Shown one piece after another: positions 17,416-62,141 of a DNA stretch of 64,000 nucleotides; the first letter of the stretch is position 1; each line of letters opens with the position of its first letter. The stretch spans positions 279,674 to 343,673 of the forward strand of contig CAWCHS010000004.1 in assembly GCA_963795405.1 (NCBI GenBank). The letters are read 5' to 3'. A model generated the notes under the pieces. That model had not been told where the DNA came from, did no database searches, and saw only the letters and a program-made list of their open reading frames with translations. A program made the translations under genes and the position numbers. Source of the DNA: Vulcanimicrobiota bacterium. GTDB lineage: Bacteria; Vulcanimicrobiota; Vulcanimicrobiia; Vulcanimicrobiales; Vulcanimicrobiaceae.

Positions 17416-17624
17416 GGCGGATCGCCCGAAGGGCGAACGCGAAGGGTTCAGCGGAACGCTGAACCCACCACCGGCCGGCACCTCGCCATCGTAGGCGGAT
17501 CGCCCGAAGGGCGAACGCGAAGGGTTCAGCGGAACGCTGAACCCACCACCGGCCGGCACCTCGCCATCGTAGGCGGATCGCCCGAAGGGCGAACGCGAAG
17601 GGTTCAGCGGAACGCTGAACCCAC
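17416..17624 (+). repeat. Tandem array of a 78-bp double-hairpin unit (2 full copies plus a 53-bp copy)
   Basis: Identical GGCGGATCGCCCGAAGGGCGAACGCGAAGGGTTCAGCGGAACGCTGAACCCAC at 17416, 17494 and 17572, separated by an identical 25-bp spacer. Confidence 0.95.
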
Positions 17625-17660
17625 TAGGACTCGGCCGCCGCGGCGGAGATATTCGGCAGG

Positions 17661-18521
17661 ATGCCTTCTCTCTCGCCGCAGCGGCTGATCGAGCTGGAGA
17701 CGCACGCGAACGACGTGCGCCAGGGGATCATTCGCTCGCTGCTCTGCGCCGGCTCCGGTCACTCCGGCGGCTCGCTCGACATGGCCGACATCTTCACGGC
17801 GATGTATTTCGAGATCTTGCGCCACGACCCGAAGAACCCGGACTGGCCCGAGCGCGACCGCCTGCTGCTCTCGTGCGGCCACATCGCGCCGGTCCGCTAC
17901 AGCGCGATGGCCTACGCCGGCTACTTCCCGGTGGAGGAGCTGCAGACGCTGCGGCATTTCGGAAGCCGCCTGCAGGGGCACCCGGAGCGGGTGAGCCTGC
18001 CCGGGCTGGAGACGACCTCGGGCCCGCTGGGCGAAGGGCTCGCGCAGGGCACCGGGATGGCCTACGCGGCGAAAATGGACAAGAAAGACTGGCGCGTCTA
18101 CGTCGTCACCTCCGACGGCGAGCACCAGTGCGGTCTGCACTGGGAGGCGATGATGACCGCGGCCAAGTTCAAGCTGAACAATCTGACCTGCATCGTCGAC
18201 CGCAACGTGATCCAGATCGACGGCAGCACCGAGGACGTGATGCCGCTCGAGCCCTTCGCCGACAAGTACCGCGCGTTCAACTGGGCGGTGTTCGAGTGCG
18301 ACGGGCACGACATCGCCGCGTTCGTCGACGCGGTCGAACAGGCGAAGCAGGTCCAGGACCGGCCCCAGGTCATCATCGCGCACACGATCATGGGCAAGGG
18401 CGTCTCGTACATGGAAGGCGACTACACGTGGCACGGCAAGCCGCCGAAGCCGGACGAGGCCGACCTCGCGCTGCGCGAGCTGCTTGCCGCGCGCGAGAAG
18501 ATCGGAGCGGGTCGTGGCTAG
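17661..18521 (+). CDS. Transketolase N-terminal (TPP-binding) subunit
   Basis: GSGHSGGS, LSCGH, LQGHP, SGPLGEG, SDGE...VDRN TPP motif. Confidence 0.9.
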   Translation: MPSLSPQRLIELETHANDVRQGIIRSLLCAGSGHSGGSLDMADIFTAMYFEILRHDPKNPDWPERDRLLLSCGHIAPVRYSAMAYAGYFPVEELQTLRHFGSRLQGHPERVSLPGLETTSGPLGEGLAQGTGMAYAAKMDKKDWRVYVVTSDGEHQCGLHWEAMMTAAKFKLNNLTCIVDRNVIQIDGSTEDVMPLEPFADKYRAFNWAVFECDGHDIAAFVDAVEQAKQVQDRPQVIIAHTIMGKGVSYMEGDYTWHGKPPKPDEADLALRELLAAREKIGAGRG

Positions 18522-19533
18522 CGCCGAGACGATGAGCGGCGTCGCGGCGATGCACCTGGTCGACTACCGTCACGCCGATGCGGTCAAGCAGGTCCCGACG
18601 CGCAACGGCTTCGGCGAAGGACTGGTCGAAGCCGGCCGCCGGAATGCGAACGTCGTCGCGATCTGCGCCGACCTCGCCGAGTCGACGCGGATGGAGCCGT
18701 TCAAGCACGCGTTCCCCGACCGGTACATCGAGATCGGCGTGGCGGAGCAGATGCTGGTCGCGATGGCCGGCGGGCTCGCCGCCGCGGGGAAGATTCCGTT
18801 CATCGCGAGCTACGCGATGTTCAACCCGGGGCGCTCGTGGGAGCAAGTCCGCACGATCATGGCTCTCAACGAGTCCAACGTGAAGATCGCCGGCGCGCAC
18901 GCCGGGGTCTCGGTCGGCCCCGACGGCGCGACCCACCAGGCGATCGAGGACATCGCGATCATGCGCGTGATCCCGCACATGCTGGTCGTCGTTCCCTGCG
19001 ACTCGGTACAGACGAAGAAGGCGACGCTCGCCGTCGCCGAGAGCATCTCGCCGACGTACCTGCGCTTCGCGCGCGCCGAGTCGGCGGTCGTCACCACCGA
19101 CGAGACGCCCTTCGAGCTCGGCAAGGCGCAGACGTTCCGCGAGGGCGGCGACGTCGCGATCGTCGCCTGCGGGATCTTGGTCTACGAAGCCTTGATCGCC
19201 GCCGAGAAGCTGGCGAAGGACGGGATCCACTGCCGCGTCGTCAACAACCACACGGTCAAGCCGATGGACGAGCCGGCGATCCTCGCGGCGGCGGGCGACT
19301 GCGGCGCGATCGTCACCGTCGAAGAGCATCAGGTGCAAGGCGGGATGGGCTCGCGCGTCGCCGAGATCGTCGCGGCGAAGCACCCGGTCCCCATCGAGTT
19401 CATCGGCGTCCACGACCGCTTCGGTCAATCCGGAAAGCCGACGGAGCTGATCAAGGAGTACGGGATGGGCGCCCCGGCGATCGCCGAAGCGGCACGCCGC
19501 GCCCACGCCCGCAAGCGCGCCGCCGCGCGCTGA
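18514..19533 (+). CDS. Transketolase C-terminal (pyrimidine-binding) subunit
   Basis: ADLAES, EIGVAEQ, GPDGATHQ, YLRFAR, EEHQ...GG. Confidence 0.9.
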   Translation: MASAETMSGVAAMHLVDYRHADAVKQVPTRNGFGEGLVEAGRRNANVVAICADLAESTRMEPFKHAFPDRYIEIGVAEQMLVAMAGGLAAAGKIPFIASYAMFNPGRSWEQVRTIMALNESNVKIAGAHAGVSVGPDGATHQAIEDIAIMRVIPHMLVVVPCDSVQTKKATLAVAESISPTYLRFARAESAVVTTDETPFELGKAQTFREGGDVAIVACGILVYEALIAAEKLAKDGIHCRVVNNHTVKPMDEPAILAAAGDCGAIVTVEEHQVQGGMGSRVAEIVAAKHPVPIEFIGVHDRFGQSGKPTELIKEYGMGAPAIAEAARRAHARKRAAAR

Positions 19534-19569
19534 AGCACTGCGCCGTGCATCAGCGTCGCGCGCGGCTCG

Positions 19570-21027
19570 TCAGCGTCGCGCGCCGCCGATGAGCTCGTAG
19601 CGTTCCGGGCGCACGCGCCGCGTCCGCGCCCGGAACGCGAAGGTGAACCCGGGCCAGAGCGTCGTGACCTTCCCGCTGCGGTCGCGGTACCAGCTGCTGC
19701 ATCCGCTCGTCCACACGGTGCGCGCCAGGCGCGCCTGCAGCTTCGCGTTGTAGCGTGCTTGGACGTCGGCGCGCACGTCGAGCGCGCGAGCGCGCCGCGC
19801 GCGCAGCAGATCGAGCGCGCTGAGGACGTAGCGGTACTGCGCCTCCATCATCAGCACCATCGAGTTGTGGCCGAGCCCCGTATTCGGTCCGATCAGCAGA
19901 AAGAGGTTCGGGAAGCCGGCGACGCTCGTGCCCAGGTACGCTTCCATCCCGTCGCGCCACGCCTCGGCCAGGGTGACGCCGCCGCGGCCGGCGATCCGCA
20001 CCGACGGCGGGTCCGTCGCACGAAAGCCCGTCGCGAGAACGATCGCGTCGGCGTGGTGCTCGGCGCCGTCCGCGGTGACGATTCCCTGCTCGCGAACCGC
20101 CCGGATCCCTTGGGTCACCACCTCGACGTTCTCGCGCTCGAGCGCCGGGTAGTAGTCGTCCGACAAGAGGATGCGCTTGCAGCCCATGCGGTAGCTCGGC
20201 ACGAGCCGTTCGCGTAGCGCCGGCGCGGCGACGCCGCGCGCCAGATGACGGCGCGCCAGCACCTCCATCGCGCGTAAGACCCGCGGCTCCGCGGTGAAGC
20301 CGTACGCGCGCAGCTCGAGCTGCCAGTAGATCAGCTTGCGCTCCAGCCACGCGAACCCCGGCAGCCGGCGCCGCAGCAGCCGGCGCAGTGGCGACACCGG
20401 CGCGTCGCCGCGCGGCATCACCCAGGCCGGCGTGCGCTGAAACAGCGTCACGCGCCGCGCAAGCGGGGCGATCGCCGGAACGATCTGGATCGCGCTCGCG
20501 CCGGTCCCGATCACCGCGACGTCCTTCCCGCCGACGTCGAGCGCGGGATCCCACGCCGACGAATGGATCACGGCACCGGCGAACGACGCCAGCCCCGGCA
20601 GCTCCGGAACGTTCGGACGATTCAGGAATCCGGTCGCCCACACCAATGCGCGCGCCTCGATCGTCGCGCCGTCGGAGGTGCGGATCCGCCATGCGCCGGC
20701 GTCCTCGTCGTATGCGGCATCCACGAGCTCGGTGCCGAATCGAAGATGCGCACCGAGGCTGTGGCGTTCGACGCAGCGGCGCAGGTACTGCCAAATCTCG
20801 TCGCGTGCGGGATACGTGCGCGTCCACTCGGCGTTCGGCGCGAACGAGAACGAGTAGAGCATCGAGGGGATGTCGCAGGCGCAGCCGGGATAGGCGTTGT
20901 CGCGCCAGGTGCCGCCGACCTCGCTCGCGCGCTCGAGCACCACGAAGCTCGCGATCCCGCGCCGTTTGAGCCGGATCGCCATCCCGATCCCCGCGAAACC
21001 GGCCCCAACGATGACGACGTCGAGCAC
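19570..21027 (-). CDS. Baeyer-Villiger-type flavin monooxygenase
   Basis: GAGFAG, GGTWRDNAYPG, BVMO fingerprint FAGAVIHSSAWD, GTGASA. Confidence 0.9.
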   Translation of the reverse strand: MLDVVIVGAGFAGIGMAIRLKRRGIASFVVLERASEVGGTWRDNAYPGCACDIPSMLYSFSFAPNAEWTRTYPARDEIWQYLRRCVERHSLGAHLRFGTELVDAAYDEDAGAWRIRTSDGATIEARALVWATGFLNRPNVPELPGLASFAGAVIHSSAWDPALDVGGKDVAVIGTGASAIQIVPAIAPLARRVTLFQRTPAWVMPRGDAPVSPLRRLLRRRLPGFAWLERKLIYWQLELRAYGFTAEPRVLRAMEVLARRHLARGVAAPALRERLVPSYRMGCKRILLSDDYYPALERENVEVVTQGIRAVREQGIVTADGAEHHADAIVLATGFRATDPPSVRIAGRGGVTLAEAWRDGMEAYLGTSVAGFPNLFLLIGPNTGLGHNSMVLMMEAQYRYVLSALDLLRARRARALDVRADVQARYNAKLQARLARTVWTSGCSSWYRDRSGKVTTLWPGFTFAFRARTRRVRPERYELIGGARR

Positions 21028-21030
21028 CGA

Positions 21031-22698: not shown

Positions 22699-22784
22699 GA
22701 ACGACCTTTGGCGAACGGTGGCGGGACCGGGGACCATTCGCGCTCGCAGGCCGGGCGCGCCTGCGCGCGCGAAGAGCCGGCGGG

Positions 22785-25942: not shown

Positions 25943-26078
25943 CGCAGAGCCGCTTCCCGCGAGGCTTCGGCCGTTCCCGGCGGCCGGCGCCCCGCGGGAC
26001 CGGCGGCGCCAGGGCTTGTGAGGCCGCTCGCGTATGGCGGCCCTACACGACGCGCTCGCGAGGCCTGAGGAGGATGCG

Positions 26079-27049: not shown

Positions 27050-27134
27050 GGCGGACCGCAGCACCGCGAGGACCGCGATGGTTTCAGCGATCGTCGCCGC
27101 GGGATGGCGGACCGCACCCCAGCGAGGACCGCGA
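27050..27134 (+). repeat. Imperfect 29-bp direct repeat x2
   Basis: GGCGGACCGCA-N5-GCGAGGACCGCGA at 27050 and 27106. Confidence 0.8.
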
Positions 27135-27135
27135 A

Positions 27136-27198
27136 GGCGGCTTGCGGGCGCAGTCCGCAAACGCGATGGATTCGGCGCTCGTCCAGAGCGCCGAATCC
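27136..27198 (+). repeat. Divergent copy of the double-hairpin element; may also act as a bidirectional terminator
   Basis: TTGCGGGC-GCA-GTCCGCAA, then ACGCGA, then the 13-bp stem GGATTCGGCGCTC/GAGCGCCGAATCC, between convergent genes. Confidence 0.75.
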
Positions 27199-27199
27199 T

Positions 27200-28153
27200 C
27201 TAATCGAGCGTGCCGACGAGTCCGGCCTTGCTGGCCGACGTCGTGCTGTCGATCAGGTAGACGTCGAACAGGTAGCTGGTGAAAGTACCCACCGTGAACG
27301 GCAGCACGTTCGCGCCGTCGGCGCCCGGCGTCGCGATCTCGAACCCGACGCTGGCCTCCGAGGGGAGCGCGCTGGCGAAGATCGACGTCGGTGGAGTCGG
27401 CGTCGCGCCGGTGCTCACCTCGGTCCCGTCGCTGGCGTACACGCCGACGCCGGGCGACGTCGTCACGGCCGTGATCGTCCCATACGTCGCCGTCCCGCCG
27501 GCGAAGTTCGAGCCGGTCGCCGGCGCGGTGAAGCCCGCAAAGTTCACCGGCTTGGCATAGGTCGTCGACCCAGGCGGGAAGGTCCCGTACTGCACCGTTC
27601 CTTGCGCGGTCTTCGAGACGGACGCGAACAGCGGCGCCGCGTGGTGGAATCCGATCAGCGCCTGCCCCGTCGTGATCGACGGCGGGTCTTCGAGGAAGAC
27701 GTCGCACTGCAGCCCGGTGGGTGTGTTCGCCGGACTCGTCGCGCGGCCGGCGATGACGACCGTATAGCGATCGCTCTCGGCCAGCGCGGTCGTCGTGCAG
27801 CTCAGCGCCGTCGTCGAGGAACCGTGCTGCTTCACCGTCACGATGATGCCGACGTCGCCGATCGTCGAGCCGTACGCGGTCATCGACTGATAGGCGAGGC
27901 CGGTCGCATTCACCGGCGGACTCGGGCTGGCCGTCGGCGTCGCCTTGGGCGCCGGTGTGGGCGTCGAAGCCGGTTCGACGACGACGTCGATCGAGGCGAG
28001 GTCGGGCGAGCCGTTCAGCACGCGAACGTAGGACGCGGGCGTGACGTGGGTGACGGAGATCAGGCCCGCGTTCTGCGGACTGCAGGCGGCGAACACGACC
28101 GTCGTCGTCGCGACGGCGAGCCCGCCGAAGAGTCCGAGGAGCCGTAGGTGCAT
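27200..28153 (-). CDS. DUF4397-like lipoprotein
   Basis: Lipobox FAAC; VRVLNGSPDLASIDV; GFHHAAP. Confidence 0.7.
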   Translation of the reverse strand: MHLRLLGLFGGLAVATTTVVFAACSPQNAGLISVTHVTPASYVRVLNGSPDLASIDVVVEPASTPTPAPKATPTASPSPPVNATGLAYQSMTAYGSTIGDVGIIVTVKQHGSSTTALSCTTTALAESDRYTVVIAGRATSPANTPTGLQCDVFLEDPPSITTGQALIGFHHAAPLFASVSKTAQGTVQYGTFPPGSTTYAKPVNFAGFTAPATGSNFAGGTATYGTITAVTTSPGVGVYASDGTEVSTGATPTPPTSIFASALPSEASVGFEIATPGADGANVLPFTVGTFTSYLFDVYLIDSTTSASKAGLVGTLD

Positions 28154-29458: not shown

Positions 29459-29460
29459 GG

Positions 29461-44001: not shown

Positions 44002-44092
44002 TGGCGGAGAGGGAGAGATTCGAACTCTCGAGACGCTATCAACGTCTGCCCGCTTTCGAGGCGGGTGCCTTCAACCACTCGACCACCTCTCC
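44002..44092 (-). tRNA. tRNA-Ser(CGA)
   Basis: Cloverleaf, CCCGC-CT CGA AA-GCGGG anticodon arm, long variable arm, encoded CCA. Confidence 0.96.
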
Positions 44093-44096
44093 GTGG

Positions 44097-44600
44097 TCAC
44101 CGCCGGGTTGCGAAGAATCCGCGCAGCTGGGCGGCGGCTTCGTCCGCGAGCACCCCGTCGACGACGTCGACCCGATGGTTCACGGCGGCCGATCCGAGTA
44201 TATCGATGACCGACCCCGCGGCCCCTCCCTTCGGGTCGCGGCAGCCGAAGACCAGGCGCTCGATCCGCGCCGCGGCGAGCGCGCCGGCGCACATGGCACA
44301 CGGCTCCTTCGTGACGTAGAGCGACCCGCCGATCCGCCAGCGGCCGAGCGCGCGCGCCGCCCCGCGAATCACCAGCATCTCGGCGTGCGCGGTCGGATCG
44401 GGGAGCCGTTCCTTGGCGTTCCACGCTTCGAAGACGCGGCCGTCGACGGCGAGCACCGCGCCGATCGGCACGTCGCCCGCTTCGGCCGCTCGCTCGGCCA
44501 GCGCGATCGCGCGGCGTACGTACGCGACGTCGTCGTCGCGAAAGGAAACTCGCTCCCGGCCCGGCTCGAACGGGCAACCTTCGCCTTCGGAGGGCGACAC
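44097..44600 (-). CDS. tadA: tRNA adenosine(34) deaminase; start uncertain (44600 is a GTG inside the tRNA)
   Basis: DVPIGAV, PTAHAEM, TKEPCAMCAGA, DPKGGA. Confidence 0.9.
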   Translation of the reverse strand: MSPSEGEGCPFEPGRERVSFRDDDVAYVRRAIALAERAAEAGDVPIGAVLAVDGRVFEAWNAKERLPDPTAHAEMLVIRGAARALGRWRIGGSLYVTKEPCAMCAGALAAARIERLVFGCRDPKGGAAGSVIDILGSAAVNHRVDVVDGVLADEAAAQLRGFFATRR

Positions 44601-44624
44601 TCTATCCAATTGAGCTACGGGAGC
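44551..44624 (-). tRNA. tRNA-Arg(CCG)
   Basis: GCTCCCG/CGGGAGC acceptor, TCGCC-CT CCG AA-GGCGA, TTCGAGC T-loop; no encoded CCA. Confidence 0.95.
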
Positions 44625-44625
44625 C

Positions 44626-44773
44626 TGCCGCCATCTCGCTGCGCTCGATGGCGGTTCGGCATGACCCGCGTACAACGCGGGTCAGCCTTCCTTCGGTGTG
44701 TGCCTTCGGGCGGCGGGGTCTCGCTACCGCCTGCGGGCGCGGTGAGTTTGGGGTCGTCGCGGGCGCGGTGAGT
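44626..44773. repeat. Hairpin-rich spacer with a 15-bp direct repeat
   Basis: Stems 44628-44654, 44662-44684 and 44712-44731; GCGGGCGCGGTGAGT at 44733 and 44759. Confidence 0.7.
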
Positions 44774-44830
44774 CGGTCGTGGCGAGGCGCGGTGGGTTTG
44801 GTTGCGTGGCGAGTCGTGGTGCGCGTGGCG

Positions 44831-45088
44831 TTAGCGGCGGTCTTCGGTGGCGGCGGGGCCGGTTGGACCGGTGGGGCCGCTGCTCGGCATGTGCTTGAAG
44901 AGGTCCAGCTTGTGTTCGACGAGTCCCCGGTAGAATTTGCGCACGCAGTCGGGATGCCCGAAGAAGTACGTGCGCGCGTACGCCAGATCGTCCCCCGAGC
45001 TGTCCGGCACGTAGTGGCTGATTTCGATCTCCTCCATCTGCGCCCGGTCGACCGGGTGCGGGCAGAAATCGCAGGGGATCGTCGACAT
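44831..45088 (-). CDS. Small hypothetical protein with CxxC...HxxC
   Basis: GAGG SD; CDFC and HPDC; Gly/Pro tail. Confidence 0.65.
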   Translation of the reverse strand: MSTIPCDFCPHPVDRAQMEEIEISHYVPDSSGDDLAYARTYFFGHPDCVRKFYRGLVEHKLDLFKHMPSSGPTGPTGPAATEDRR

Positions 45089-45108
45089 GGTGTACCTCGA
45101 GAAATTCC

Positions 45109-45180
45109 TGACTCGGGTAGGATTTGAACCTACGACCTAGGGCTTATGAGTCCCCCGCTCTACCGCTGAGCTACCGAGCC
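45109..45180 (-). tRNA. tRNA with CAT anticodon (elongator Met or Ile2)
   Basis: GGCTCGG/CCGAGTC acceptor, CT CAT AA loop, TTCAAAT; G1-C72 pair so not an initiator; no CCA. Confidence 0.9.
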
Positions 45181-45290
45181 GTTGCCGTCCGTGCGTCGAA
45201 CGCACGTCGATTATCCAGAACACGTCAAGACCCTGCCGGGCTGCGTGCGTGCGGCAGGCCCCGGGCCGGGGGCTCCGCCAAGTGTACGGC

Positions 45291-46931
45291 ATGACGTTCC
45301 GGGTGTTTACCTCCCTGGCGGTCGCGGCGTTGCTCGCGAACGCTGCATCACCGCTTCCCTCGGCTGCTGCGCAGGACGACGCAGCCGCGGTCATGGCGCG
45401 ACACGCAGCCTACGTCGGCGCTCCGCAAGGCCTCGTGCTGCGCTATCGCTTTGAACGCGACGCCTCCGCGACGCCGCGGCCCTCGCCCTCGCCCGACGAA
45501 GCCGACATTCCCAAGAGCGGTCCGCCCGAGACGGTGACCTATCGGCGTGGCGCGCTCTTTCGCCAGCTCGGGTCGGGGAACGGGAACTCGACCGAGAGCG
45601 GCTTCACCGGACGCGCGTTCTGGGAGGCCGACGACAACGGCTACACCGTGCTCTTGCTGGAAGACCAGGGCCGTCGCGCGCTCACCGAAAACGCGCTCGA
45701 CAGCGATCAGCTCGCCGGCGCGACGCTGGAGTCGCGCGGAACGCGCACCGTGAACGGTATCCTCTGTGACATCGTGCGCGTCACGCCGCCGGCGGGCGTC
45801 ACCGCCGAGGTCGCCGTCGACCGCGCGACCGGCGGCTTCGTGAAGATCGTCTACGAACCCGACGACCGCTACGTGCACGACGACGAGACGATCGTCGGCT
45901 ACAAGGAGATCGCGCCCGGCGTTCGCGTCCCGGGCGCGTACAAGGCCGCCCACGGCGAATACAAGCTCGTCGACGGCACCGTGCGCGCGGTGACGAACGA
46001 CGAGCTCCGCGGCCCGGTGCCGACCGCGAAGTGGACGTTCGCCTCGACGGATGCGACGCCGATCGACGTCGTGACGCGCACGCCGGAGTTCGGGTTCATG
46101 CCGCCCGGCAAAGCGGTGCACGTGCACGCGACGATCAACGGAACGCCCGGAACCTTTCTGCTCGACTCCGGCGACGGCGCGGACATCCTGCTCTACAGCG
46201 CCTTCACCGACAAGCTCGCGAAGAAGCTCACGACGATCGGCCGCACCGGCTTCTCGGGGATCAACGGGCGCGGCGTCGCCGCGCGGCTCGAGCGCGTCGA
46301 CACGCTCCAAGTCGGGAAGAACACCCTTTCGAACGTCTCCGTCTCGGTCGCGAAGGGCGGCTTCGGCGCCGACATCGACGGGATTCTCGGCTTCGACTTC
46401 CTCGCCGGCGCGATCGTCGACGTGAACCTCGCCGAGAAGACGATTCGCATCCTCGACCCGAGCGTCTACGAGCCGACCGTCGTCAAAGGCGCCTACGCCT
46501 TTCCGATCAATCTGGCGAGCCGCCAGCCGGGGATCTCGCTCCGCGTCGGCGACGCCGAGACGAAAGCGGTCTTCGACAGCGGCGACTCCTTTCTGGTCTC
46601 GCTCAGCGACGATCTCCTGCGCAGCCGGCGCGTCGTCGCGCTCACCGACACCACGCGCATTGCGGACCCGTATTCCGGCGCGCCGATGGAGTTCCAGTAC
46701 AACCTCTTCTTCGTCGGCGTCGACGGGCCGACAAGCGTTCCGGCGAAGTGCTCCCGCATCAACCAGCTCGAGGTCGGTCCGTACCGCTACGAGCGCGTCG
46801 AGACGTGCTTCGCGCCGGCCGAGGTGTTCGGAAAGGACGGCGGCCTGATCGGGATGGACTTCCTCCAGCACTTCAACTGGACGTTCGACTACGTCGACTC
46901 GAAGCTCGTGCTCACGCCGAACGGGCTCTGA
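45291..46931 (+). CDS. Secreted protein with two retropepsin-like aspartyl protease domains
   Basis: Signal peptide; FLLDSG and AVFDSG; DGILGFDF and GLIGMDFL. Confidence 0.78.
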   Translation: MTFRVFTSLAVAALLANAASPLPSAAAQDDAAAVMARHAAYVGAPQGLVLRYRFERDASATPRPSPSPDEADIPKSGPPETVTYRRGALFRQLGSGNGNSTESGFTGRAFWEADDNGYTVLLLEDQGRRALTENALDSDQLAGATLESRGTRTVNGILCDIVRVTPPAGVTAEVAVDRATGGFVKIVYEPDDRYVHDDETIVGYKEIAPGVRVPGAYKAAHGEYKLVDGTVRAVTNDELRGPVPTAKWTFASTDATPIDVVTRTPEFGFMPPGKAVHVHATINGTPGTFLLDSGDGADILLYSAFTDKLAKKLTTIGRTGFSGINGRGVAARLERVDTLQVGKNTLSNVSVSVAKGGFGADIDGILGFDFLAGAIVDVNLAEKTIRILDPSVYEPTVVKGAYAFPINLASRQPGISLRVGDAETKAVFDSGDSFLVSLSDDLLRSRRVVALTDTTRIADPYSGAPMEFQYNLFFVGVDGPTSVPAKCSRINQLEVGPYRYERVETCFAPAEVFGKDGGLIGMDFLQHFNWTFDYVDSKLVLTPNGL

Positions 46932-46964
46932 TCCCTCCCCAGACCGCTGTTCGCTAGGAGATTG

Positions 46965-48479
46965 ATGATGAAAACGAGCGCCCGGGGTGCGCTCGCGGTC
47001 GCGGCGATGCTGCTCGCCGCGACCGCCGTCCCCGCCCATGCCGACGACGCGCGGGCGCTGCTCGCCAAGCACGCGGCGTACGTCGGCTGGCAAGCCGGCG
47101 ACGGCACCGTGACGAGCCTGCGCGAATCGGGCGCGGTCACGCTCGACGGAAAGGTTCGCGAAACGATCGAGTCCGTGCATCGCGGGTTCGTCTACCGCGA
47201 GCGCTACGGCGCCTTCCAGGAAGGTTTCACCGGCCGCGTGCTCTGGACGTCGAACGCGAACGGCTTCACCGTGCGCAGCGTCGGCGCGCCGGCGCAATAC
47301 ACGGCGACCTATCAGTCGCTCTTCGGCGAGGCGCTCGACGGCGCGCCCGCGACGGTTCTCCGCAGCGAGGAGCTGAGCGGGACGCCCGTGACCTGGGTGC
47401 ACCTGCAGCCGCAGGTCGGCGTCGCCGCCGACGTCGCGATCGATCCCGCCACCGGCGCGTTCAAGCGCGTCGTTCTCGATCCCGGCGGGAAATACGAGAC
47501 GACGATCGACGTGCTGAGCTACGCCGAGATCAGCGGCGGGAAGCGGGTGATCTCGTCCTGGCGGTACGGCGCCGGCCACTCGGTCTGGGCGTACACCGAG
47601 ATCAAGGCGAACGTTCCGGTCTCCGACGCAGAGCTGCACCCGCCGGCGCAGCGCGCGAAGTGGACGTTCGATCCCGCGAACACGCCGATCCCGGTCGAGC
47701 TGACCGAGCACCGCATCCTGATCGACGCGACCATCAACGGCGTGAAGGGGCGCTTCATCTTCGACACCGGCGCCGACGGCATCGCGCTGACCGATACCTT
47801 CGCGCGCCGCGCCGGGGCGAAGCGGCTCGGCCAAACCGAGATCGAAGGGATCGGCGGAGGCGCGCGCGCCAACGTCTACAAGGTCGACACCGTCGCCTTC
47901 GGCGGCAGCGTGCTGCACGACGTCGTCATCGACACCGGGCTCGACGAACGCGGGCCGATGTTCCAGGACACGGCCGGCCTGATCGGCTTCGATCTGCTCG
48001 GCGGCGCGATCGTCGACATGGACCTCGACGCGAAGACGATGCGCATCATGGACCCGCAGAAGTTCGAGCCCGACAAGAGCAAAGGGATCACCGTTCCGGT
48101 CGACCTGACCACCGGGCAGCCCCGTGTCCCGATGACGGTCGGCGGGCGGGTCGCCGTGCTCGCGACGCTCGACAGCGGCAACCCGGCCTGGGTGATGTTC
48201 AGCAAGTCGCTGCAGTCACGCGACCATGTCAGCTTCTTCGTCGACCCGACGGCGCTCGTGCAAGAGATCCAGTTCTACGGCGTCAACGGCAGCGAGATCG
48301 ACCGCTGCGGCAAGCTGCAAAGCTTGAACCTCGGCCCGATCTCCTACGCCCCGGTGCCGGCCTGCGCATCCGACTCGATGGCGCGCAGCGAAGTCCTCGT
48401 CGGCCTCGAGTTCATCCGCGCCTTCAACACCGTCTTCGACTATCCCGACGGCTACCTGGTGATGACGCCGCGCAAATAG
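46965..48479 (+). CDS. Secreted protein with two retropepsin-like aspartyl protease domains
   Basis: AGGAG SD; signal peptide; FIFDTG and ATLDSG; GLIGFDLL. Confidence 0.8.
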   Translation: MMKTSARGALAVAAMLLAATAVPAHADDARALLAKHAAYVGWQAGDGTVTSLRESGAVTLDGKVRETIESVHRGFVYRERYGAFQEGFTGRVLWTSNANGFTVRSVGAPAQYTATYQSLFGEALDGAPATVLRSEELSGTPVTWVHLQPQVGVAADVAIDPATGAFKRVVLDPGGKYETTIDVLSYAEISGGKRVISSWRYGAGHSVWAYTEIKANVPVSDAELHPPAQRAKWTFDPANTPIPVELTEHRILIDATINGVKGRFIFDTGADGIALTDTFARRAGAKRLGQTEIEGIGGGARANVYKVDTVAFGGSVLHDVVIDTGLDERGPMFQDTAGLIGFDLLGGAIVDMDLDAKTMRIMDPQKFEPDKSKGITVPVDLTTGQPRVPMTVGGRVAVLATLDSGNPAWVMFSKSLQSRDHVSFFVDPTALVQEIQFYGVNGSEIDRCGKLQSLNLGPISYAPVPACASDSMARSEVLVGLEFIRAFNTVFDYPDGYLVMTPRK

Positions 48480-48492
48480 CGCAGCGGCGTCG

Positions 48493-49839
48493 CTAGGGAC
48501 CGACGTCCCGAAGGATCTTCTTCGCGATGACCGCGGCCGGCGTCGTGCTGCCCTGCACGCCCAGGTTCGTCATGACGATCACGCCGACGCCGTCGGCCGT
48601 CCCGGGGTTGACCAAACCGATCCAGGCGGTGAAGCCTCCGGTCGCCCCGTCTTTCCAGGTGACCGTCTCGCCGTTGAACGCATCGGTCGCCCACGCGAGG
48701 TGCTGATCGTCGGTCCCGTTGTTACCGGTGCTCACCAGCGTGGTCATCTTCTCGGCCTGCTTCATCGCCGCGTTGATGTCCGCGTTGCTGCTCTGCAGCA
48801 GCGCGGCGTTGAGGTACGTCAGCATGTCGCCGCTCTTCGAGCGCAGCGTCCCGCCGCCGGGCCACGCGTTCACCGGCCAGTGATAGGTCGCGGTCGACGG
48901 CGCGCTGTAGCCGGTGGCGTAGTTCGAGCCGTAGTACGAGGTGCGCGAGACGTCGAGCGTCGAGGGCATGTCGAGCGGCACGAGCACCAGATGGTAGGTG
49001 AGCGTGAAGTAGTCGGTGTCCAGGAAGCCGGCCAGCCAGTCGCCGAGGATCCCGTATCCGATGTCCGAGTAGTCGTAGTACGAGCCGATCTTCTCGCTGC
49101 TGGGCGCGACGTACGTCTCGACGTAGTTGATGAGCCGCTGCGCCGGATAGCACGGTCGCAGGTAGGTCGGGAGCGTCGGCCCGCCCGTCGGGTACGGGTT
49201 CGGCGGCAGATCGGGGAGCGTCGAGGCGTGATCCGCAAGATCGCGCAGGTTCATCTCTTTGAACGTCGTGCTGTACCGCGAGGTGGGGACCGGCGTCGCG
49301 GCGGCGAGCGTCGGACACGCATTGCCGTTCGCGTCGGTCGTCGCCGGCGCGGGAACTTTGTACGCGGCGAGATGGCCGTCGTCGAGCGGCTCGGTCGGCG
49401 AGTACGTTCCCGCGTAGGTGCTGCTCGGGTCGATCGCCTTGTCCAGCGACGGGTACAGCAACGCCAGCTCGAGATCGAGCGCGGTGAACGTCTTCGTCAC
49501 CGACCCCAGTTCGAACGCCGTCGCCGAGCTGACGGCGACCTTCGTCGAACGATCCTGCACGCCGTAGAAGTACGTGTACGATTTCCCGTGATAGATGAAG
49601 TCGACCGCCGCGCCGGGGACACCGAGCGACTTCGACTCGTTCGTCGTGTCGGTCGCGATCTTGCCGGGGATCGGATCCGGCGTCGCGGTCGGCTTCGGCG
49701 TCGTCGTCGCCATCGTCCGCACCGCGCTCGTCGTGCGCTCGCCCGGCACCGGCGGCCCGACGGCGCCGTTCTGCGCGCATGCCGCGAAGAGCGCGGCGGC
49801 CGCCAATGCCGCGAGCATGCGAACGGAGCGAACGGTCAT
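48493..49839 (-). CDS. Serine hydrolase (beta-lactamase class C/PBP-like) lipoprotein
   Basis: Lipobox FAAC; FELGSVTK (SxxK), YSD, KDGATGGF. Confidence 0.82.
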   Translation of the reverse strand: MTVRSVRMLAALAAAALFAACAQNGAVGPPVPGERTTSAVRTMATTTPKPTATPDPIPGKIATDTTNESKSLGVPGAAVDFIYHGKSYTYFYGVQDRSTKVAVSSATAFELGSVTKTFTALDLELALLYPSLDKAIDPSSTYAGTYSPTEPLDDGHLAAYKVPAPATTDANGNACPTLAAATPVPTSRYSTTFKEMNLRDLADHASTLPDLPPNPYPTGGPTLPTYLRPCYPAQRLINYVETYVAPSSEKIGSYYDYSDIGYGILGDWLAGFLDTDYFTLTYHLVLVPLDMPSTLDVSRTSYYGSNYATGYSAPSTATYHWPVNAWPGGGTLRSKSGDMLTYLNAALLQSSNADINAAMKQAEKMTTLVSTGNNGTDDQHLAWATDAFNGETVTWKDGATGGFTAWIGLVNPGTADGVGVIVMTNLGVQGSTTPAAVIAKKILRDVGP

Positions 49840-49887
49840 GAACCACCTCGGTTGAGACGGGCGCAAGTCGGACCGATTTTCGCACCG

Positions 49888-49913
49888 AAAAGAAAAACCC
49901 CGCCGAAGCGGGG
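49888..49913 (-). terminator. Rho-independent terminator after the tRNA pair
   Basis: CCCCGC-TTCG-GCGGGG followed by TTTTTCTTTT on the minus strand. Confidence 0.85.
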
Positions 49914-49920
49914 GTGAAAC

Positions 49921-49994
49921 CGCGGTCGGAGGGACTCGAACCCCCAACCTACAAGTTCGTAGCCTGTTGCTCTATCCAATTGAGCTACGACCGC
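49921..49994 (-). tRNA. tRNA-Arg(ACG)
   Basis: GCGGTCG/CGACCGC acceptor, CT ACG AA loop; no CCA. Confidence 0.96.
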
Positions 49995-50071
49995 GTGCGC
50001 GCGCCGTTTGCGGCGGCGACCTCGTGGGATACGCCGCGTCGTACACGATCCCTTTTCGGATCGTCGGGCGC

Positions 50072-50162
50072 TGGCGGAGAGGGAGGGATTCGAACCCTCG
50101 ATACGATGTAACTCGTATAACGGTTTAGCAAACCGCCGCCTTCAGCCGCTCGGCCACCTCTC
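50072..50162 (-). tRNA. tRNA-Ser(GCT)
   Basis: TT GCT AA loop, long variable arm, encoded CCA. Confidence 0.96.
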
Positions 50163-50297
50163 CACGGTCGCGAACCGCCTTGTCCTACCAGGGCCGGTTG
50201 TCCTCTTGGTCAAGGCCCCGGACGAGCCCGGCGCGACGCGCTCGCCATTTTCTGCCGGCAGGGTCGCCGCAGAACCGCCTTCGCGTCGGCGCCGAGA

Positions 50298-55219: not shown

Positions 55220-55271
55220 CGCGGTGGCGGGCGTCTCCTGCCCGAGGCGGGGTCGGTATCCAAGCGGGGGT

Positions 55272-55280
55272 CATTATACC
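55272..55280 (-). promoter_or_regulatory. Extended -10 promoter upstream of the hemolysin-family gene
   Basis: Perfect TGGTATAAT (TGnTATAAT) about 50 nt upstream of the start, in a GC-rich genome. Confidence 0.65.
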
Positions 55281-55306
55281 ATACGGGGTGCCGGGCGGCC
55301 GGGCGC

Positions 55307-55666: not shown

Positions 55667-55677
55667 GCGACGACCGC

Positions 55678-57725: not shown

Positions 57726-58699
57726 CGCTTACGCGCGTCGCGTTCGCGCGAGAGCCGGTCGTAGGCGGCGACGATGCGGCCGACCAGCGGGTGCCGCACG
57801 ACGTCGGACTCGTCGAGCCGCACGATCGCGACGTCGTCGGTCTCGGCGAAGAGCCGCTCCACGTCGAGGATCCCGCTCCGAGCGCCGCGCGGCAGATCGA
57901 TCTGCGTGTCGTCGCCGGTCACCACCATCTTCGAGTTCGCGCCGAGCCGCGTCAGGAACATCTTGAGCTGCTCGTGCGTCGCGTTCTGCGCTTCGTCGAG
58001 AATGACGAAGGCGTCCGAGAGCGTCCGTCCGCGCATGTACGCGAGGGGCGCGACTTCGATGATCCCGCGTTCGAGATAGCGCTGCGTCGTGCCGTCCTCG
58101 AGCAGCTCTTGGAGCGCATCGTAGAGCGGCCGCAGATACGGGTCGACCTTCTCGCGCAGATCGCCCGGCAGAAAGCCGAGCTTCTCGCCGGCCTCGACCG
58201 CCGGCCGCGAGAGAACGATCCGCGCGACCTCGCGGTTCTTCAGCGCGCGGACGGCCATCACGATCGCCAGGAACGTCTTTCCGGTCCCGGCGGGGCCGAT
58301 CGCGAAGCTCAGCGTGTTCGCGTCGATCGCGGCGACGAGCCCGCGCTGGCCGGCGGTCTTCGGCCGGACCTCCCGGCCGCGCGAGGTGGAGATCAGCGTC
58401 GGCGGGATCCCGCCGTTGCCGCGTTTCTCGGCCGTCGCGGAACGGGCGGCCAGCGCGACGTCGTCGGGACTCACCTGCGCGCCGGAGCGCGCCGCGGCCA
58501 GCATCGCGGCCAACACTTCCTCGGCGCGGCGCACGGCGGCGCCCTCGCCGCTGACGTGGACCCGGTCGCCGTCCAGCCGCAGCACCACGGGGATCAGCGC
58601 CTCGAGCGCGTTCAGGTTCTGGTCGCGGTGCCCGCAGAAGCGGAGGGGATCGGAAAGACCCGCGAGGTCGAAGACGGCCTCGCTCGTGATCGACGGCAT
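57722..58699 (-). CDS. phoH: PhoH family ATPase
   Basis: GPAGTGKT, RPAVEAGEKLGFLPG, YMRGRT, DEAQN, GDDTQIDL. Confidence 0.95.
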   Translation of the reverse strand: MPSITSEAVFDLAGLSDPLRFCGHRDQNLNALEALIPVVLRLDGDRVHVSGEGAAVRRAEEVLAAMLAAARSGAQVSPDDVALAARSATAEKRGNGGIPPTLISTSRGREVRPKTAGQRGLVAAIDANTLSFAIGPAGTGKTFLAIVMAVRALKNREVARIVLSRPAVEAGEKLGFLPGDLREKVDPYLRPLYDALQELLEDGTTQRYLERGIIEVAPLAYMRGRTLSDAFVILDEAQNATHEQLKMFLTRLGANSKMVVTGDDTQIDLPRGARSGILDVERLFAETDDVAIVRLDESDVVRHPLVGRIVAAYDRLSRERDARKR

Positions 58700-58735
58700 C
58701 TCCCCGCTATAACGCCGGGCCGTCGCGCAAGGTTG

Positions 58736-59245
58736 TCAGCGGAGCGCGCGCGGCGGGCCGAGGACCTCGGCCAGGATCACCGCGGTCCGGGCATGCGCCG
58801 AGTCGCCGAACGCCGCCGCGAGCGTCCAGCCGGAGCCGGCCGGAGCGCCTGAGGGGACGGCCGGCCGCAGCGCGGGCGAGGGCGGAAGGCCCGTCGGGCG
58901 AGGAGCCGGTGGAACGCTGACGGGCCCGGCCGCGGCACCCGTGGCGGGAGTAGTAGCGCCCGCGGGGCCACGCGGAAGCGCGCTCCGAGACCGCTGCTGC
59001 AGCGTCTGCCGGATTTCGAGCAGCTGCAGCTCGGCCGGCGAGGGTCCGCGCGGTGCGGCACCCAGCGGCACGACGGCGTACGGCGCGATGCCCGGCGCGA
59101 CACCGGATGGTGCGGCGCCGCGCGTCTGCGCGGCGTCCGGCCGCGCCGCGGCGGTGCGCTCCGCGACGCGCGCGGCGGCTTTGCGAAGCTGGTTCACCGC
59201 CGCGATGAGGGTCACGGCGATGACGATCCAGGCTCCCGGATTCAC
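58736..59245 (-). CDS. YqfB-like hypothetical protein
   Basis: N-terminal TM, low-complexity middle, C-terminal [15 protein letters not shown]; follows floA. Confidence 0.6.
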
Positions 59246-60255
59246 GACGTCGACGAGACCGGCGTGGCGGAGGCCGAGGCGTCTCCGGCGCCGACGCTCG
59301 AGCCGATCGCGCCGCGCATCTCGGTGTCGGCTTTCACGTTGTTGAGCTTGTAGTAGTCCATCACCCCGAGGTGTCCGGCGCGGAACGCTTCGGCGATCGC
59401 TTCGGGGATCTGCGCCTCGGCCTCGACCACCTTCGCGCGCATGCGCTGCGTCTCGGCCTTCATCTCCTGCTCGGCGGCCTGCGCGGCGTACTGCCGCTCC
59501 GAGGCCTTCGCCTGCGCGATGCGGCGGTCGGCTTCGGCCTGCGAGGTCTGCAGGTCGGCGCCGATGTTCTTGCCGACGTCGACGTCGGCGATGTCGATCG
59601 AGACGATCTCGAACGCCGTCCCCGCGTCGAGCCCTTTCGCCAGCACGGCCTTCGAGATGCGATCGGGATACTCGAGCACTTCCTTGTGGTCGATGGCGGC
59701 GCCGACGGCGCTGACGACACCTTCGCCGACGCGCGCGACGATCGTCGGCTCTCCGGCGCCGCCGACGTAGCGGTCGAGGTTCGAGCGCACGGTGATCCGC
59801 GCTTTGACGTTGAGCTGAATCCCGTTCTGCGCGACGCCCTGGAAGATCGGCGTTTCGATCACCTTCGGGTTCACCGAGGTCTGGAGCGCTTCGAGGACGT
59901 CGCGGCCGGCGAGATCGATCGCGGCCCCGCGCTGCCACTCGAGCGGGATCTGCGCGCGCTGCGCGGCGATCATCGCCAGCACGACCTTGTCGACGTTGCC
60001 GCCGGCCAGGATGTGCGACTGCAGCTGATCGACGGTGAGCGGCAATCCCGCCTTGCGCGCGCGGACGAGATTCGAGACGATCAGGCCGGCCGGAACCCCG
60101 ATGATCCGCATCCGAATCAGCGAGCCGATCGAGAGCGGAACGCCCGCGGCGATCGTCCGCACCCACAGTCCCAGCGGGAAGTAGTACAGGAACAGCACGA
60201 TCAGGATGACGATGGCGATAACGACCACCGCACTGAGTGCCCCGAGCTGCGTCAT
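59242..60255 (-). CDS. floA: Flotillin-like protein FloA (YqfA)
   Basis: [51 protein letters not shown]. Confidence 0.95.
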
Positions 60256-60289
60256 GAGGTCCCTTCCTAGAGGAATCGCGCGCGGTCCG

Positions 60290-61618
60290 CTACAGCGGGC
60301 GCACGAAGATGCGCGACCCTTCGACTCGCGTTACCCGAACCGGTGTCCCGGCCGGAACGAAATTCCCTTCGGTGAGCACGTCGACCCGCGTCGCCTCGAT
60401 CGTTGCGACGCCCGTCGGACGGAGGAAGGAGTCGGCGACGCCGCTCTTTCCGAGCAGCGAACGGTAGTCGGCGCTCGCGACGTAATCGCTGCCCTGCGCC
60501 CCCAGGAACATCAGCCGCTTCGCGAACGCGTTCTCGGGGATGAAGCGCCGCGCGATCGCGAACGCGACGGCGCTGAGCACGATCGCCACCGCCAGCGCCT
60601 CCAGCGCGCCGACGAAGAACGCGAGTCCGAAGGCGAACACGACCGCCCCGACGAGCAGCACGAGGCCGAGCACCCCCGGCACCCCGTGCCCCGGGAGGAC
60701 GTGCAGCTCGAGCAGGATCAGCCCGAGCCCCAGCAGCGCCGCGAACACCACCAGGTCGTTCGAGAACCCGGCGTACACGTGGGTCCCGAAGAACAGCGCG
60801 AGCGACCCGGCGCCGATCGCGCCGGCGACGAGGTGCAACGTCTGCAGCTCGATCAGCAGCCCCAGGAACCCGACCGCCAAGAGGATCCCGCTCACGTCGG
60901 GGTTGGTCGCGATCCGGGCGACTTGCTCGGCGAACGAGTATGACGCGTTCGCATGCGGCGCGCCGGCGAGGTCGAAGGAGGCGAGCGCGGCATCGAAGGT
61001 CGGCTCGATCGCCTCGGCGATCCCGGCCTGGCGTGCCTGATCTGCGGTCAGCGTGAGAATCGCGCCGGGTGCCTTGTAGCGCGGCGCGTCGACTTGCGGA
61101 TCGACCATCGCCGCGGCGAGGGTCGGGTCCCGATGGTAGCGCGACGCCGTGGCCTCGAACTCGGCGCGCAGCGCGGAGATCGTCTTGACGGTGGTCGGGA
61201 TCGGCTCGGCGGCGCCGATCGAGCCGGTCGGCGCCATCGCGATGTGCGCGGCGGACAGACTCACCAGGGCGCCGGCGGACCACCCGCGCGTCACGTAGGC
61301 ATCGACCGGGACGGGGCTCGTCAGCAAGGTGTCGCGAATCTCGGTCGCCGCGCTCACCAGCCCGCCGAACGTGTTCACGTCGAGCACGATGGCGCGCGCG
61401 TGCTGCGCGCGGGCGTCGGCGACGGAGCGCTCGACCAGATGCGCCATCCCCTCGTCGATCGTCCCGTGGATCGGGACGACGACGATCTCCCGGCCGGGGG
61501 ACGCGGCGGGATCGGCCGACGCAGCCTGGCGGGTCAGCACCATCGCGGCGAACGCGACGTACAGGCCGAGGGCGAGGGCGGTGATGAGCAGGCGGACCAC
61601 GAGGGGGCGAGCGGTCAC
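60290..61618 (-). CDS. nfeD: Long NfeD family membrane protein (YqeZ-like)
   Basis: NTFGG, SAGA, IGAAEP ClpP-like domain; TM bundle; C-terminal OB ([13 protein letters not shown]). Confidence 0.9.
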
Positions 61619-61628
61619 GTCAGGCTGT

Positions 61629-61649
61629 ACCTCGGCGAACCGCCGAGGT
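61629..61649. other. 9-bp perfect hairpin between yqeY and nfeD
   Basis: ACCTCGGCG-AAC-CGCCGAGGT; no U tract. Confidence 0.5.
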
Positions 61650-62092
61650 TACGCCGAAAGCTCCTCACCGACAACCCGCCGGACGGCGCTCCCGTCGGCG
61701 ACCCCGCGGACGCGCGGCATGACCGCCTTCATGACGGCGCCCTGGTTCCGGCCGGCCTCGGGGAGCGCGGCGAGCGCCTCCCGGACGATCGCCCGGATCT
61801 CGTCCTCCGAGAGCTGCGCCGGCAGGTACTGCTGCAGGAGGTCGCGCTCGCGGGTCTCCTTCTCGACGAGCTCGGTGCGCCCGGCGGTGCGAAACTGCTC
61901 GATCGAGTCGTTGCGCTGCTTGACGAGCTTCTGGACCACGGCGGCCTGATCGTCGTCCGAGAGATCGCTCCCCGCCTCGATGCGCCGATAGTTGAACGCC
62001 GAGACGACGCTCCGCAGCGCGTCCAGGCGAACCTGGTCGCGCGCCTTCATCGCCTCTTTCATGTCGGCCGCGATCCGCTCTTTGATGCTCAC
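61649..62092 (-). CDS. yqeY: GatB/YqeY domain protein
   Basis: DMKEAMKARD, KQRNDSIEQF, YLPAQLS, ADGSAVR. Confidence 0.92.
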   Translation of the reverse strand: MSIKERIAADMKEAMKARDQVRLDALRSVVSAFNYRRIEAGSDLSDDDQAAVVQKLVKQRNDSIEQFRTAGRTELVEKETRERDLLQQYLPAQLSEDEIRAIVREALAALPEAGRNQGAVMKAVMPRVRGVADGSAVRRVVGEELSA

Positions 62093-62094
62093 CT

Positions 62095-62141
62095 GGCTTC
62101 ACGTTCCGTGAAGCCGTCGCGTTCGCCCTGCGGGCGATCCG
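62095..62141 (-). repeat. Divergent copy of the double-hairpin element
   Basis: Minus strand reads CGGATCGCCCGCAGGGCGAACGCGACGGCTTCACGGAACGTGAAGCC. Confidence 0.85.

Follow-up and report, generated by a model that had tools for sequence, protein, structure and literature searches.

The closest described counterparts of the repeat reported here are the tagged repetitive extragenic palindromic sequences (REPs) of the GTAG and CGTC superfamilies (Di Nocera, De Gregorio and Rocco 2013). These are small GC-rich palindromes of roughly 20–40 bp, numerous within a genome, with stems of 6–13 bp and loops of 2–3 nt, whose stems change with pairing preserved and whose unpaired terminal tag can supply a TAG stop codon. 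They form heterodimers, lie mostly between co-directional or convergent genes near 3′ ends and rarely between divergent ones, and occur in clusters reiterated with flanking DNA, and most members carry the tag GTAG or one of its degenerate forms GYAG, GYRG, GTRG, GTMG and GTGG (PMC3733652). Here we analyze a two-hairpin intergenic element of about 55 nt in a 64-kb stretch of contig CAWCHS010000004.1 (hereafter the window), which its flanking proteins assign to Vulcanimicrobiota (Eremiobacterota, WPS-2), near metagenome-assembled genomes of Ca. Elarobacter and Baltobacteraceae. With a probability of roughly 0.65, we take it to be a new lineage-specific family of heterodimer intergenic repeats, similar to REPs and to bacterial interspersed mosaic elements (BIMEs), that spreads at the DNA level in uncultured soil members of this phylum. 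Copies of common descent are found at unrelated gene ends, in several genomes and in both orientations, and their sites differ between close relatives through gain, amplification that includes flanking DNA, decay, loss of the hairpins or replacement. The first-pass annotation of the window had suggested that this may be a lineage-specific mobile or regulatory element, and a lineage-specific, probably mobile one agrees with the evidence. The element is probably mobile, and both its function and its means of spread are what we infer below.

In the BIMEs of Escherichia coli (Y/Z mosaics), unlike palindromes in opposite orientation are joined by a short conserved linker, reiterated in tandem or left as mosaics of partial units, at transcribed positions between genes (background on E. 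coli REPs in PMC3733652 and PMC12306157). When an E. coli REP lies no more than 15 nt from a stop codon, it is reported to interfere with the terminating ribosome (summarized in PMC12306157). The REPIN, a hairpin repeat associated with REP-associated tyrosine transposases (RAYTs), behaves as a population within the genome, in which single copies, clusters and decayed copies occur, and its movement is believed to be as single-stranded DNA (Bertels and Rainey 2011, PMC3116915). The RAYT gene, which encodes a Y1 HUH transposase, lies in the same genome with the repeats on its flanks. Palindrome-associated transposable elements (PATEs) derived from IS200/IS605 have hairpins near both ends, make no target-site duplication and have one end at a short target (background in PMC6006769).

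The element resembles the tagged REPs, especially their head-to-head heterodimers, in being a dimer of unlike units near 3′ ends, in forming clusters that include flanking DNA, in its pairing-preserving stem changes and in its unpaired terminal tag able to give a TAG stop. It differs in that two very different units are joined by a fixed 7-nt spacer, the loops are GNA instead of TY or CMA, the host phylum lies outside the eight listed in PMC3733652, and the copy number appears much lower. Moreover, the tag is xTAG followed by one spacer base and is degenerate in 6 of the 16 independent loci that we compared (18 sequences, locus A of the window contributing all three of its units), so formal membership of the GTAG superfamily is not established. 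The BIME architecture, a mosaic of unlike units plus linker with tandem reiteration, is seen at locus A, at window positions 27050–27202 and at L069 37–118, although the palindromic units are shorter than those of BIMEs (27 nt for hairpin 1 with its outer GCG/CGC stem, and about 26–36 nt for hairpin 2 with the tag). Singlets, clusters and decayed copies recall REPINs, but a REPIN proper is ruled out, as its one long hairpin forms from inverted copies of the same REP whereas the two stems here are unrelated in sequence and fold separately. The element shares with PATEs the hairpins near both ends, the missing target-site duplication and the single end at a short target, but its two hairpins are dissimilar.

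A repeat unit of two unlike hairpins

The unit consists of two unlike palindromes. Module 1, GGCGG-M-TCGCCC-GNA-GGGCGA, precedes the spacer ACGCGA-N. Module 2 forms a hairpin whose base is semi-conserved (GG-N-Y-TC ... GA-R-N-CC) and whose distal stem varies freely but remains paired; its loop is in most cases a GNA triloop, and its outer tail AC(T/C)A forms the TAG tag on the opposite strand. The base of hairpin 2 falls into four recurring subtypes (GGA-TTC, GGC-TTC, GGG-CTC and GGG-TTC), identical ones being found at unrelated loci of different genomes, and the distal stem is different at almost every locus and always paired. The GGCGG 5′ end, the linker and the hairpin 2 base are conserved in sequence beyond the needs of pairing. 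One module is kept in sequence, and the other only in structure plus the type of loop on one strand. The two-hairpin structure and the ACGCGA linker, both proposed in the first-pass annotation, are real, and the linker is near-invariant over about 25 copies from several genomes.

In the predicted fold, the GCG preceding hairpin 1 pairs with the CGC inside the linker. Both strands fold into two separate hairpins, with minimum-energy RNA folds of −33.1 and −32.7 kcal/mol and DNA folds of −21 to −22 kcal/mol per strand; the z-scores of the RNA and DNA folds against shuffles range from −3.7 to −6.7. Hairpin 1 had been described as always closing C(GNA)G, which holds in 15 of 16 loci and fails in one. 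Hairpin 2 carries a GNA triloop on the same strand as that of hairpin 1 in 11 of 16 loci (N being A, C or G), and the reverse-complement loop form TNC is absent throughout the 16 loci. The extra stability of such mini-hairpins in DNA, also part of the earlier description, is documented: d(C-GNA-G) hairpins are exceptionally stable, and their stability depends on the closing pair (PMC13037366, PMC3201870). The strand with the GNA loops and the conserved linker is the non-transcribed strand in most loci, which mildly favors a constraint on single-stranded DNA or on the source copy during copying.

A covariance model of the element (R1), built from 12 copies and then searched against the whole window, scored five copies at 50–76 bits (E from 2e-9 to 3e-15), the next-best match in the 64 kb having 19 bits. 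A search by structure (a hairpin followed by ACGCGA, a single base and another hairpin) likewise gave exactly five sites, all with perfect stems, in agreement with the five positions reported before. The 13-base core motif ACGCGANGGNTTC alone is at chance level, with 8 matches at up to one mismatch against 4.6 expected. The copies and the units attached to them are the following.

17391–17624, plus strand: tandem array at locus A (Tandem Repeats Finder: period 78, 3.0 copies, 96% matches; repeat family D3)
17414–17470, plus strand: copy A1, 76.3 bits; hairpin 1 17422–17436 (TCGCCC-GAA-GGGCGA), linker ACGCGA 17437–17442, hairpin 2 17444–17466, tail ACCA
17492–17548, plus strand: copy A2, identical to A1 (+78), CGTAG before the copy, 74.6 bits
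17570–17626, plus strand: copy A3, identical core (+156), tail ACTA running into CTAG 17625–17628, 75.3 bits
27050–27078 and 27106–27134, plus strand: two decayed units of a variant module, module 1b (GGCGGACCGCA..CGAGGACCGCGA), upstream of copy C
27134–27202, plus strand: copy C, 50 bits; hairpin 1 27142–27160 (TTGCGGGC-GCA-GTCCGCAA, 8 bp including one G-T), linker 27161–27166, hairpin 2 27168–27198 (13 bp, 5-nt loop GTCCA), tail TCTA
62091–62145, minus strand: copy B, 63.2 bits; hairpin 1 62123–62137, linker 62117–62122, hairpin 2 62095–62115

Each 78-bp unit of the array consists of a spacer of about 28 nt and an element of about 50 nt, the second and third units being identical. The spacer duplicates about the last 20 bases of the upstream peptidase gene, that is, its 3′ end, so the array arose by local duplication of a gene end plus element. 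All five copies are thus present, but they amount to three independent variants, the trio of locus A being one local triplication. The array resembles mycobacterial interspersed repetitive units (MIRUs) in its 78-bp unit, a multiple of three, in its same-orientation genes and in touching a stop codon; unlike MIRUs, the basic element is dispersed, mostly single and not a minisatellite. At copy C, a decayed left arm of hairpin 2, GGTTTCAGCG, lies between the two module 1b units, and together with these units the copy forms a mosaic cluster (27050–27202). Hairpin 2 of copy C is better represented by a stem of 13 bp that closes a loop of 5 nt than by the structure first drawn for it. In short-read assemblies of soil metagenomes (Logan contigs; runs X1–X3), contigs break within the array at window positions 17462–17569, and their loose ends carry further copies with other hairpin 2 sequences and flanks (..GCGCGAACCCACTAGATCG.. 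and ..GCGAAGCCACTATAATTGC..).

Distribution of the family

The genome scan covered one genome per species of 185,579 species with the exact 20-mer of hairpin 1 and linker, and gave 66 loci. Twelve are in Vulcanimicrobiota/Eremiobacterota, and in 10 of these hairpin 2 directly follows the linker; L010 and L029 have the same hairpin 1 and linker within coding sequence (..RPKGERD..) without hairpin 2 and were rejected as chance matches. None of the 54 loci in other phyla has the full structure or exceeds 35 bits. In metagenomes, a 22-base pattern picked out 11 loci, every one of them with the full element, and viral contigs gave 19 chance seeds and no R1 match. The pattern scans add about 20 copies to the five of the window, all in Vulcanimicrobiota/Eremiobacterota genomes or soil metagenome contigs, several of the latter being identical or syntenic to genomes of the phylum. 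Flank searches with R1 found extra copies that the search pattern could not select. Three copies deserve separate mention for their first module.

L077 13757–13811: hairpin 1 TCGGCC-GAC-GGCCGA
L069 64–118: hairpin 1 TTGGCGC-GGA-GCGCCAA, within a partial-module mosaic at 37–118
L080 17311–17367: module 1 replaced by GGCGGACCGCAGCGCAGCGAGGACCGCGA (module 1b), hairpin 2 intact; the same module is found twice, decayed, just upstream of window copy C

Only the five tRNAs of the window pass the Rfam gathering thresholds, and under permissive settings the best match in the array reaches 17.5 bits against thresholds of 70–88, which upholds the view that no Rfam family describes the element. In the literature, we found no paper that pairs Eremiobacterota with REP sequences, and, judged by title or abstract, none of those on Eremiobacterota with intergenic repeats appears to describe such an element.

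Placement at gene boundaries

Genes were called from third-position GC content and checked against Pfam. Those that adjoin loci A and B are as follows.

15124–17406, plus strand: prolyl oligopeptidase (S9) gene upstream of locus A, the syntenic ortholog being annotated Peptidase_S9; its stop codon TAG lies within CTAG 17403–17406
17661–18521, plus strand: transketolase N-terminal subunit gene downstream of locus A
61649–62092, minus strand: yqeY (GatB/YqeY domain), with its start codon 2 nt past hairpin 2 of copy B

Copy B occupies the 57-nt spacer that runs from the stop codon of a TonB-dependent receptor gene (62150) to the start codon of yqeY (GTG, 62092), a choice of start backed by homologs of 147 amino acids. 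The CTA at 27200–27202 after copy C is the stop codon of a minus-strand DUF4397 gene (open reading frame 27200–28153, Pfam match).

None of the 16 independent loci lies between divergent genes. At co-directional loci, nine copies are antisense and three are sense (window A, window B and an acyl-CoA synthetase locus), and the remaining loci are convergent or have one side without a gene call. The rule that every copy follows a same-strand gene, drawn in the first-pass annotation, holds only in the window and, given nine antisense copies to three, is an accident of it. What stays the same from locus to locus is the contact of the hairpin 2 outer end with a gene boundary. This end lies 1–2 nt from an opposite-strand stop codon at 13 of 16 loci and 2–3 nt from a same-strand start at two, yqeY and the acyl-CoA synthetase (eight orthologous contigs); at locus A alone it is 38 nt from the start codon. 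The hairpin 1 side is 0–130 nt from the neighboring gene. At 10 of these 13 loci the stop codon next to hairpin 2 is TAG, compared with a TAG share of about 33% among called genes (binomial P ~0.0015, a hand estimate). The flank opposite the hairpin 2 strand, which provides stop codons, reads xTAG-T at 10 of 16 loci and TGG-T at two, the others being TGAGT, TAAGA, TTAGA and ACCT. This flank, together with the REP/BIME-like distribution, clustering and heterodimer layout, makes the earlier verdict of "not a standard REP" too strong.

Since the element always sits at a gene end, in a region that is likely transcribed, it might mainly be a cis-acting RNA signal selected locus by locus, as a 3′-end mark, an mRNA stabilizer or an intercistronic processing site. 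We regard this as possible but unlikely. The position of hairpin 2 just before the yqeY and synthetase start codons agrees with it, and in one variant these start-abutting sense copies could serve as a structured ribosome-binding region, the fold of hairpin 2 bringing the GAAGG of the linker next to the AUG. One or two G-U pairs also agree with it, as do two-sided pairing changes even among orthologs of the acyl-CoA synthetase locus. There the element is common to at least nine contigs from several species, eight orthologs being intact or nearly so and two decayed (L035 and L091, the latter a syntenic ortholog retrieved without reference to the element), and three orthologs carry different, fully compensated versions of hairpin 2 (GGGCTC/GAGCCC, GGATTC/GAATCC and GGCTTC/GAAGCC). 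However, the excess of antisense copies stands against an RNA signal: with both orientations in use, a sequence-specific signal is unlikely, and only a function that any hairpin can fill would work. The linker and GNA loops are on the non-transcribed strand in most loci, and close relatives lose, decay or replace the element with gene order unchanged. The element has no U-tract and does not appear in the terminator scan, while canonical terminators are present, and the discrete hairpin 2 subtypes at unrelated loci fit copying better than independent local evolution.

Turnover between relatives

At locus A, the ortholog with a 93% identical transketolase and the same gene order (L078) has only 62 nt between the genes. 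It retains CTAG-CCACGCGGGCGGGACGCGACACCCG-CTAG, a 25-nt skeleton in which the 5′ GGGCGG, the linker and an ACCC tail are kept and both hairpins are lost. CTAG on both sides is found only at locus A and this ortholog. At locus B, the gap measures 10 nt in a relative at 92% identity, relatives at 93% and 89% have unrelated long hairpins at the same spot, and in a relative at 88%, which is without the receptor gene, a canonical rpsU terminator is followed by a copy that is decayed and refolded and lies directly before yqeY. Judged from these sequences, the hairpins at the copy B site seem to be replaced rather than conserved.

The different, unrelated long hairpins that two close relatives have at the junction of copy B are a 10-bp stem CCGGCCCAGG/CCTGGGCCGG in L088 (2700–2745) and an imperfect stem of about 15 bp with a loop containing GCGAAGC in L089 (3232–3272). 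In L085 and L089, the gene for the TonB-dependent receptor separates rpsU from yqeY, and in the window (62150–64000) and L088 it is found upstream of yqeY. In the more distant L086 and L087 it is absent and yqeY directly follows rpsU, a case of gene insertion beside the site of the element.

In L080 (17311–19762), an ArsB/CitMHS transporter gene, a hypothetical gene and one copy of the element lie between amidohydrolase and enoyl-CoA hydratase genes, and in L082 (17317–17320) the same two genes are only 3 nt apart. The L080 amidohydrolase has the length and C-terminus of its element-free L082 counterpart, and the insertion starts right after the stop codon. No target-site duplication was found: the mean longest sequence shared by the two flanks is 3.87 nt, equal to the 3.87 nt in mismatched flank pairs.

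These junctions raise the question of whether the element is a non-autonomous IS200/IS605-type mini-transposon (PATE), or is otherwise moved by an HUH enzyme, inserting without duplication 3′ of a TAG/TGAG target with hairpin 2 as its left end. The lack of duplication, the enrichment of TAG at the junction, the constant placement of one end at a gene boundary, the other being 0–130 nt from the next gene, and the L080–L082 difference right after the amidohydrolase stop are all consistent with such a transposon, and so are the C-G-closed GNA loops, stable in single strands and on one strand in both hairpins (PMC3201870, PMC13037366). Yet the two hairpins are unlike, whereas the ends of IS200/IS605 carry similar hairpins for one transposase, and the junction is variable (TAGT, TGAGT, TAAGA, TGGT, ACCT). 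Neither a full-length parent nor a tnpA/RAYT gene was seen in the 34 window open reading frames or by tblastn over 406 kb, and no clean empty site was recovered, all of which makes this origin decidedly unlikely. A further and quite improbable scheme, to be treated as speculation, is a stop-codon-seeking mini-element moved as single-stranded DNA by a putative enzyme of the phylum that recognizes the C(GNA)G hairpins, the sense copies having been recruited as structured translation-initiation regions before the yqeY and acyl-CoA synthetase starts.

Paired changes in the stems

In an alignment of 25 copies, the bases pair in 97.0% of cells, and two-sided changes are seen at 9 of the 18 pairs; in the independent-locus set, these values are 97.5% and 10 of 18. 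None of 500 shuffles of the 25 copies matched the observed values on four of five measures, and partner columns slid out of register pair at only 29–44%. Hairpin 1 also covaries where the search left its sequence free (TCGGCC/GGCCGA, TTGGCGC/GCGCCAA and TTGCGG/CCGCAA). The compensatory changes first noticed in hairpin 2 of the window copies therefore withstand shuffle and slid controls over about 25 copies from several genomes. Compensatory change is correct as a description but is alone no proof of selection on RNA. The recurrence of the same base subtypes indicates that part of the covariation was probably inherited by copying and did not evolve site by site, and template switching in palindromes could also yield paired changes. 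Mismatches are mostly G-G or A-C rather than wobble, with one or two G-U pairs, and the counts of G-U and A-C mismatches are too few to choose between RNA strands.

In quasi-palindrome correction, an established form of mutation, template switching makes one arm match the other, and the compensatory pattern could be a by-product of this process without structural selection. The copies are DNA palindromes, their mismatches are of the non-wobble kind, and hairpins have been cleanly lost between short direct repeats (e.g., GGGCGG-GACGCGA-CACCCG in L078), all in agreement with this process. However, it leaves the one-strand GNA loops, the placement at gene ends and the very existence of the family unexplained, and it is compatible with a REP/BIME-like family and no replacement for it. 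As the explanation of the pattern we find it very improbable. Least probable of all is a duplex binding site for a chromosome-organizing protein, as BIME-1 is for integration host factor (IHF) and BIME-2 for gyrase in E. coli: conservation of the 5′ GGCGG, linker and hairpin 2 base beyond pairing needs, indifference to orientation and the mosaic architecture would suit it, but the estimated density is low, and the distal stem of hairpin 2, free in sequence but kept paired, suggests that the relevant form is a folded single strand and not a duplex site.

Proposed spread as DNA and its possible effects

We propose that the REP/BIME-like family spreads as DNA, probably through a single-stranded hairpin intermediate. 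The missing target-site duplication and the one-strand GNA loops fit a single-strand route, HUH/RAYT-like or hairpin-dependent, better than cut-and-paste transposition of a miniature inverted-repeat transposable element (MITE). Once inserted, the element would be co-transcribed with its neighbors, and either strand is predicted to fold into two stable hairpins (about −33 kcal/mol). The transcribed double hairpin may then be a barrier to 3′ exonucleases that protects the upstream mRNA, as E. coli REPs do, and since it begins 1–2 nt after the stop codon, it may also obstruct the terminating ribosome.

Several observations weigh against this proposal. The persistence of the element at the synthetase locus and the decayed copy before yqeY could mean a local function instead of selfish spread. 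No clean empty site was recovered among the relatives, the apparently empty sites being relics or rearranged. No RAYT/IS200-like or other transposase or HUH gene is present among the 34 annotated open reading frames of the window, all of them housekeeping genes, and E. coli RayT as a tblastn query against 406 kb of carrier DNA had a best E of 3.7, a weak test as this DNA is a small fraction of the genomes. The tag is only partly that of the GTAG REPs: its first base is G in only 3 of 16 loci, so the leading G is not conserved, and before hairpin 1 GTAG is found at only two loci and G[CT]GG at about five. About 120 kb retrieved without reference to the element holds one intact and one or two decayed copies, compared with three loci in the 64 kb of the window, a rough density of about 1 per 40–100 kb that is far below that of E. 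coli or Pseudomonas REPs. Finally, the sequencing runs found to contain the locus are of soil DNA only, and its effects at the RNA level are what we infer.

Other identities considered and neighboring features

Four further identities were considered and rejected. An intrinsic terminator would share the GC-rich hairpin just after a gene, but the element has no U-tract, its tails being ACCA/ACUA in the sense direction and no more than UUCGCGUU on the opposite strand, and it is not among the sites listed by the terminator scan, which does list a canonical terminator at 49898–49913. A MITE derived from a DDE transposon should have terminal inverted repeats and a target-site duplication; these are missing, and the flanks share no more than the null expectation. 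A coding or MIRU-like mini-open reading frame does not agree with length shifts in hairpin 2 that are not multiples of three and with changes that are compensatory. A tRNA-like minihelix, a substrate of RNase P or the CCA enzyme, was prompted by CC-ACCA ends in 8 of 25 copies, but most copies end in ACTA and are antisense.

The terminator at 49898–49913 (minus strand) is a textbook one, CCCCGC-TTCG-GCGGGG followed by TTTTTCTTTT, directly after a tRNA gene (49921–49994), and shows that the phylum does use U-tract terminators; others follow rpsU in L085, L086 and L089. The five tRNA genes of the window lie on the minus strand at 44005–50163. A hairpin with a perfect stem of 9 bp and a loop of 3 nt (ACCTCGGCG-aac-CGCCGAGGT, 61629–61649) shares one base with the TAA stop of yqeY and lies 10 nt before nfeD, the next gene; its sequence is unrelated to the element, and it is not formed in the homologous spacer of five relatives. 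Perfect hairpins with stems of 10–13 bp, also unrelated to the element, are found at 309–335, 44662–44684 and 46995–47026. Two adjacent paralogous genes (45249–46931 and 46962–48479) encode aspartyl-protease (gag-asp-like) domains and share 90 nt at 80% identity (family D11). Outside the window, the entries L078 1–1288 and L080 1–7144 hold a ribonucleotide reductase gene of 2636 codons with intein and LAGLIDADG domains and, on a related contig, a Tc-toxin-like gene of more than 2900 codons (VRP1, TcA_TcB_BD).

Implications

The element is a clean repeat family with clear limits, new to a phylum for which metagenomes are almost the only source of knowledge, and gives a usable covariance model, markers for strain typing and a warning of assembly breaks. 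If the family is simply an ordinary REP-like one, its value lies mainly in annotation. If the single-strand reading is true, it points to a mobilizing enzyme outside the Proteobacteria-centered picture of REPs and RAYTs. With one module conserved in sequence joined to another conserved in structure only, the family also offers a natural test of how hairpin repeats are maintained.

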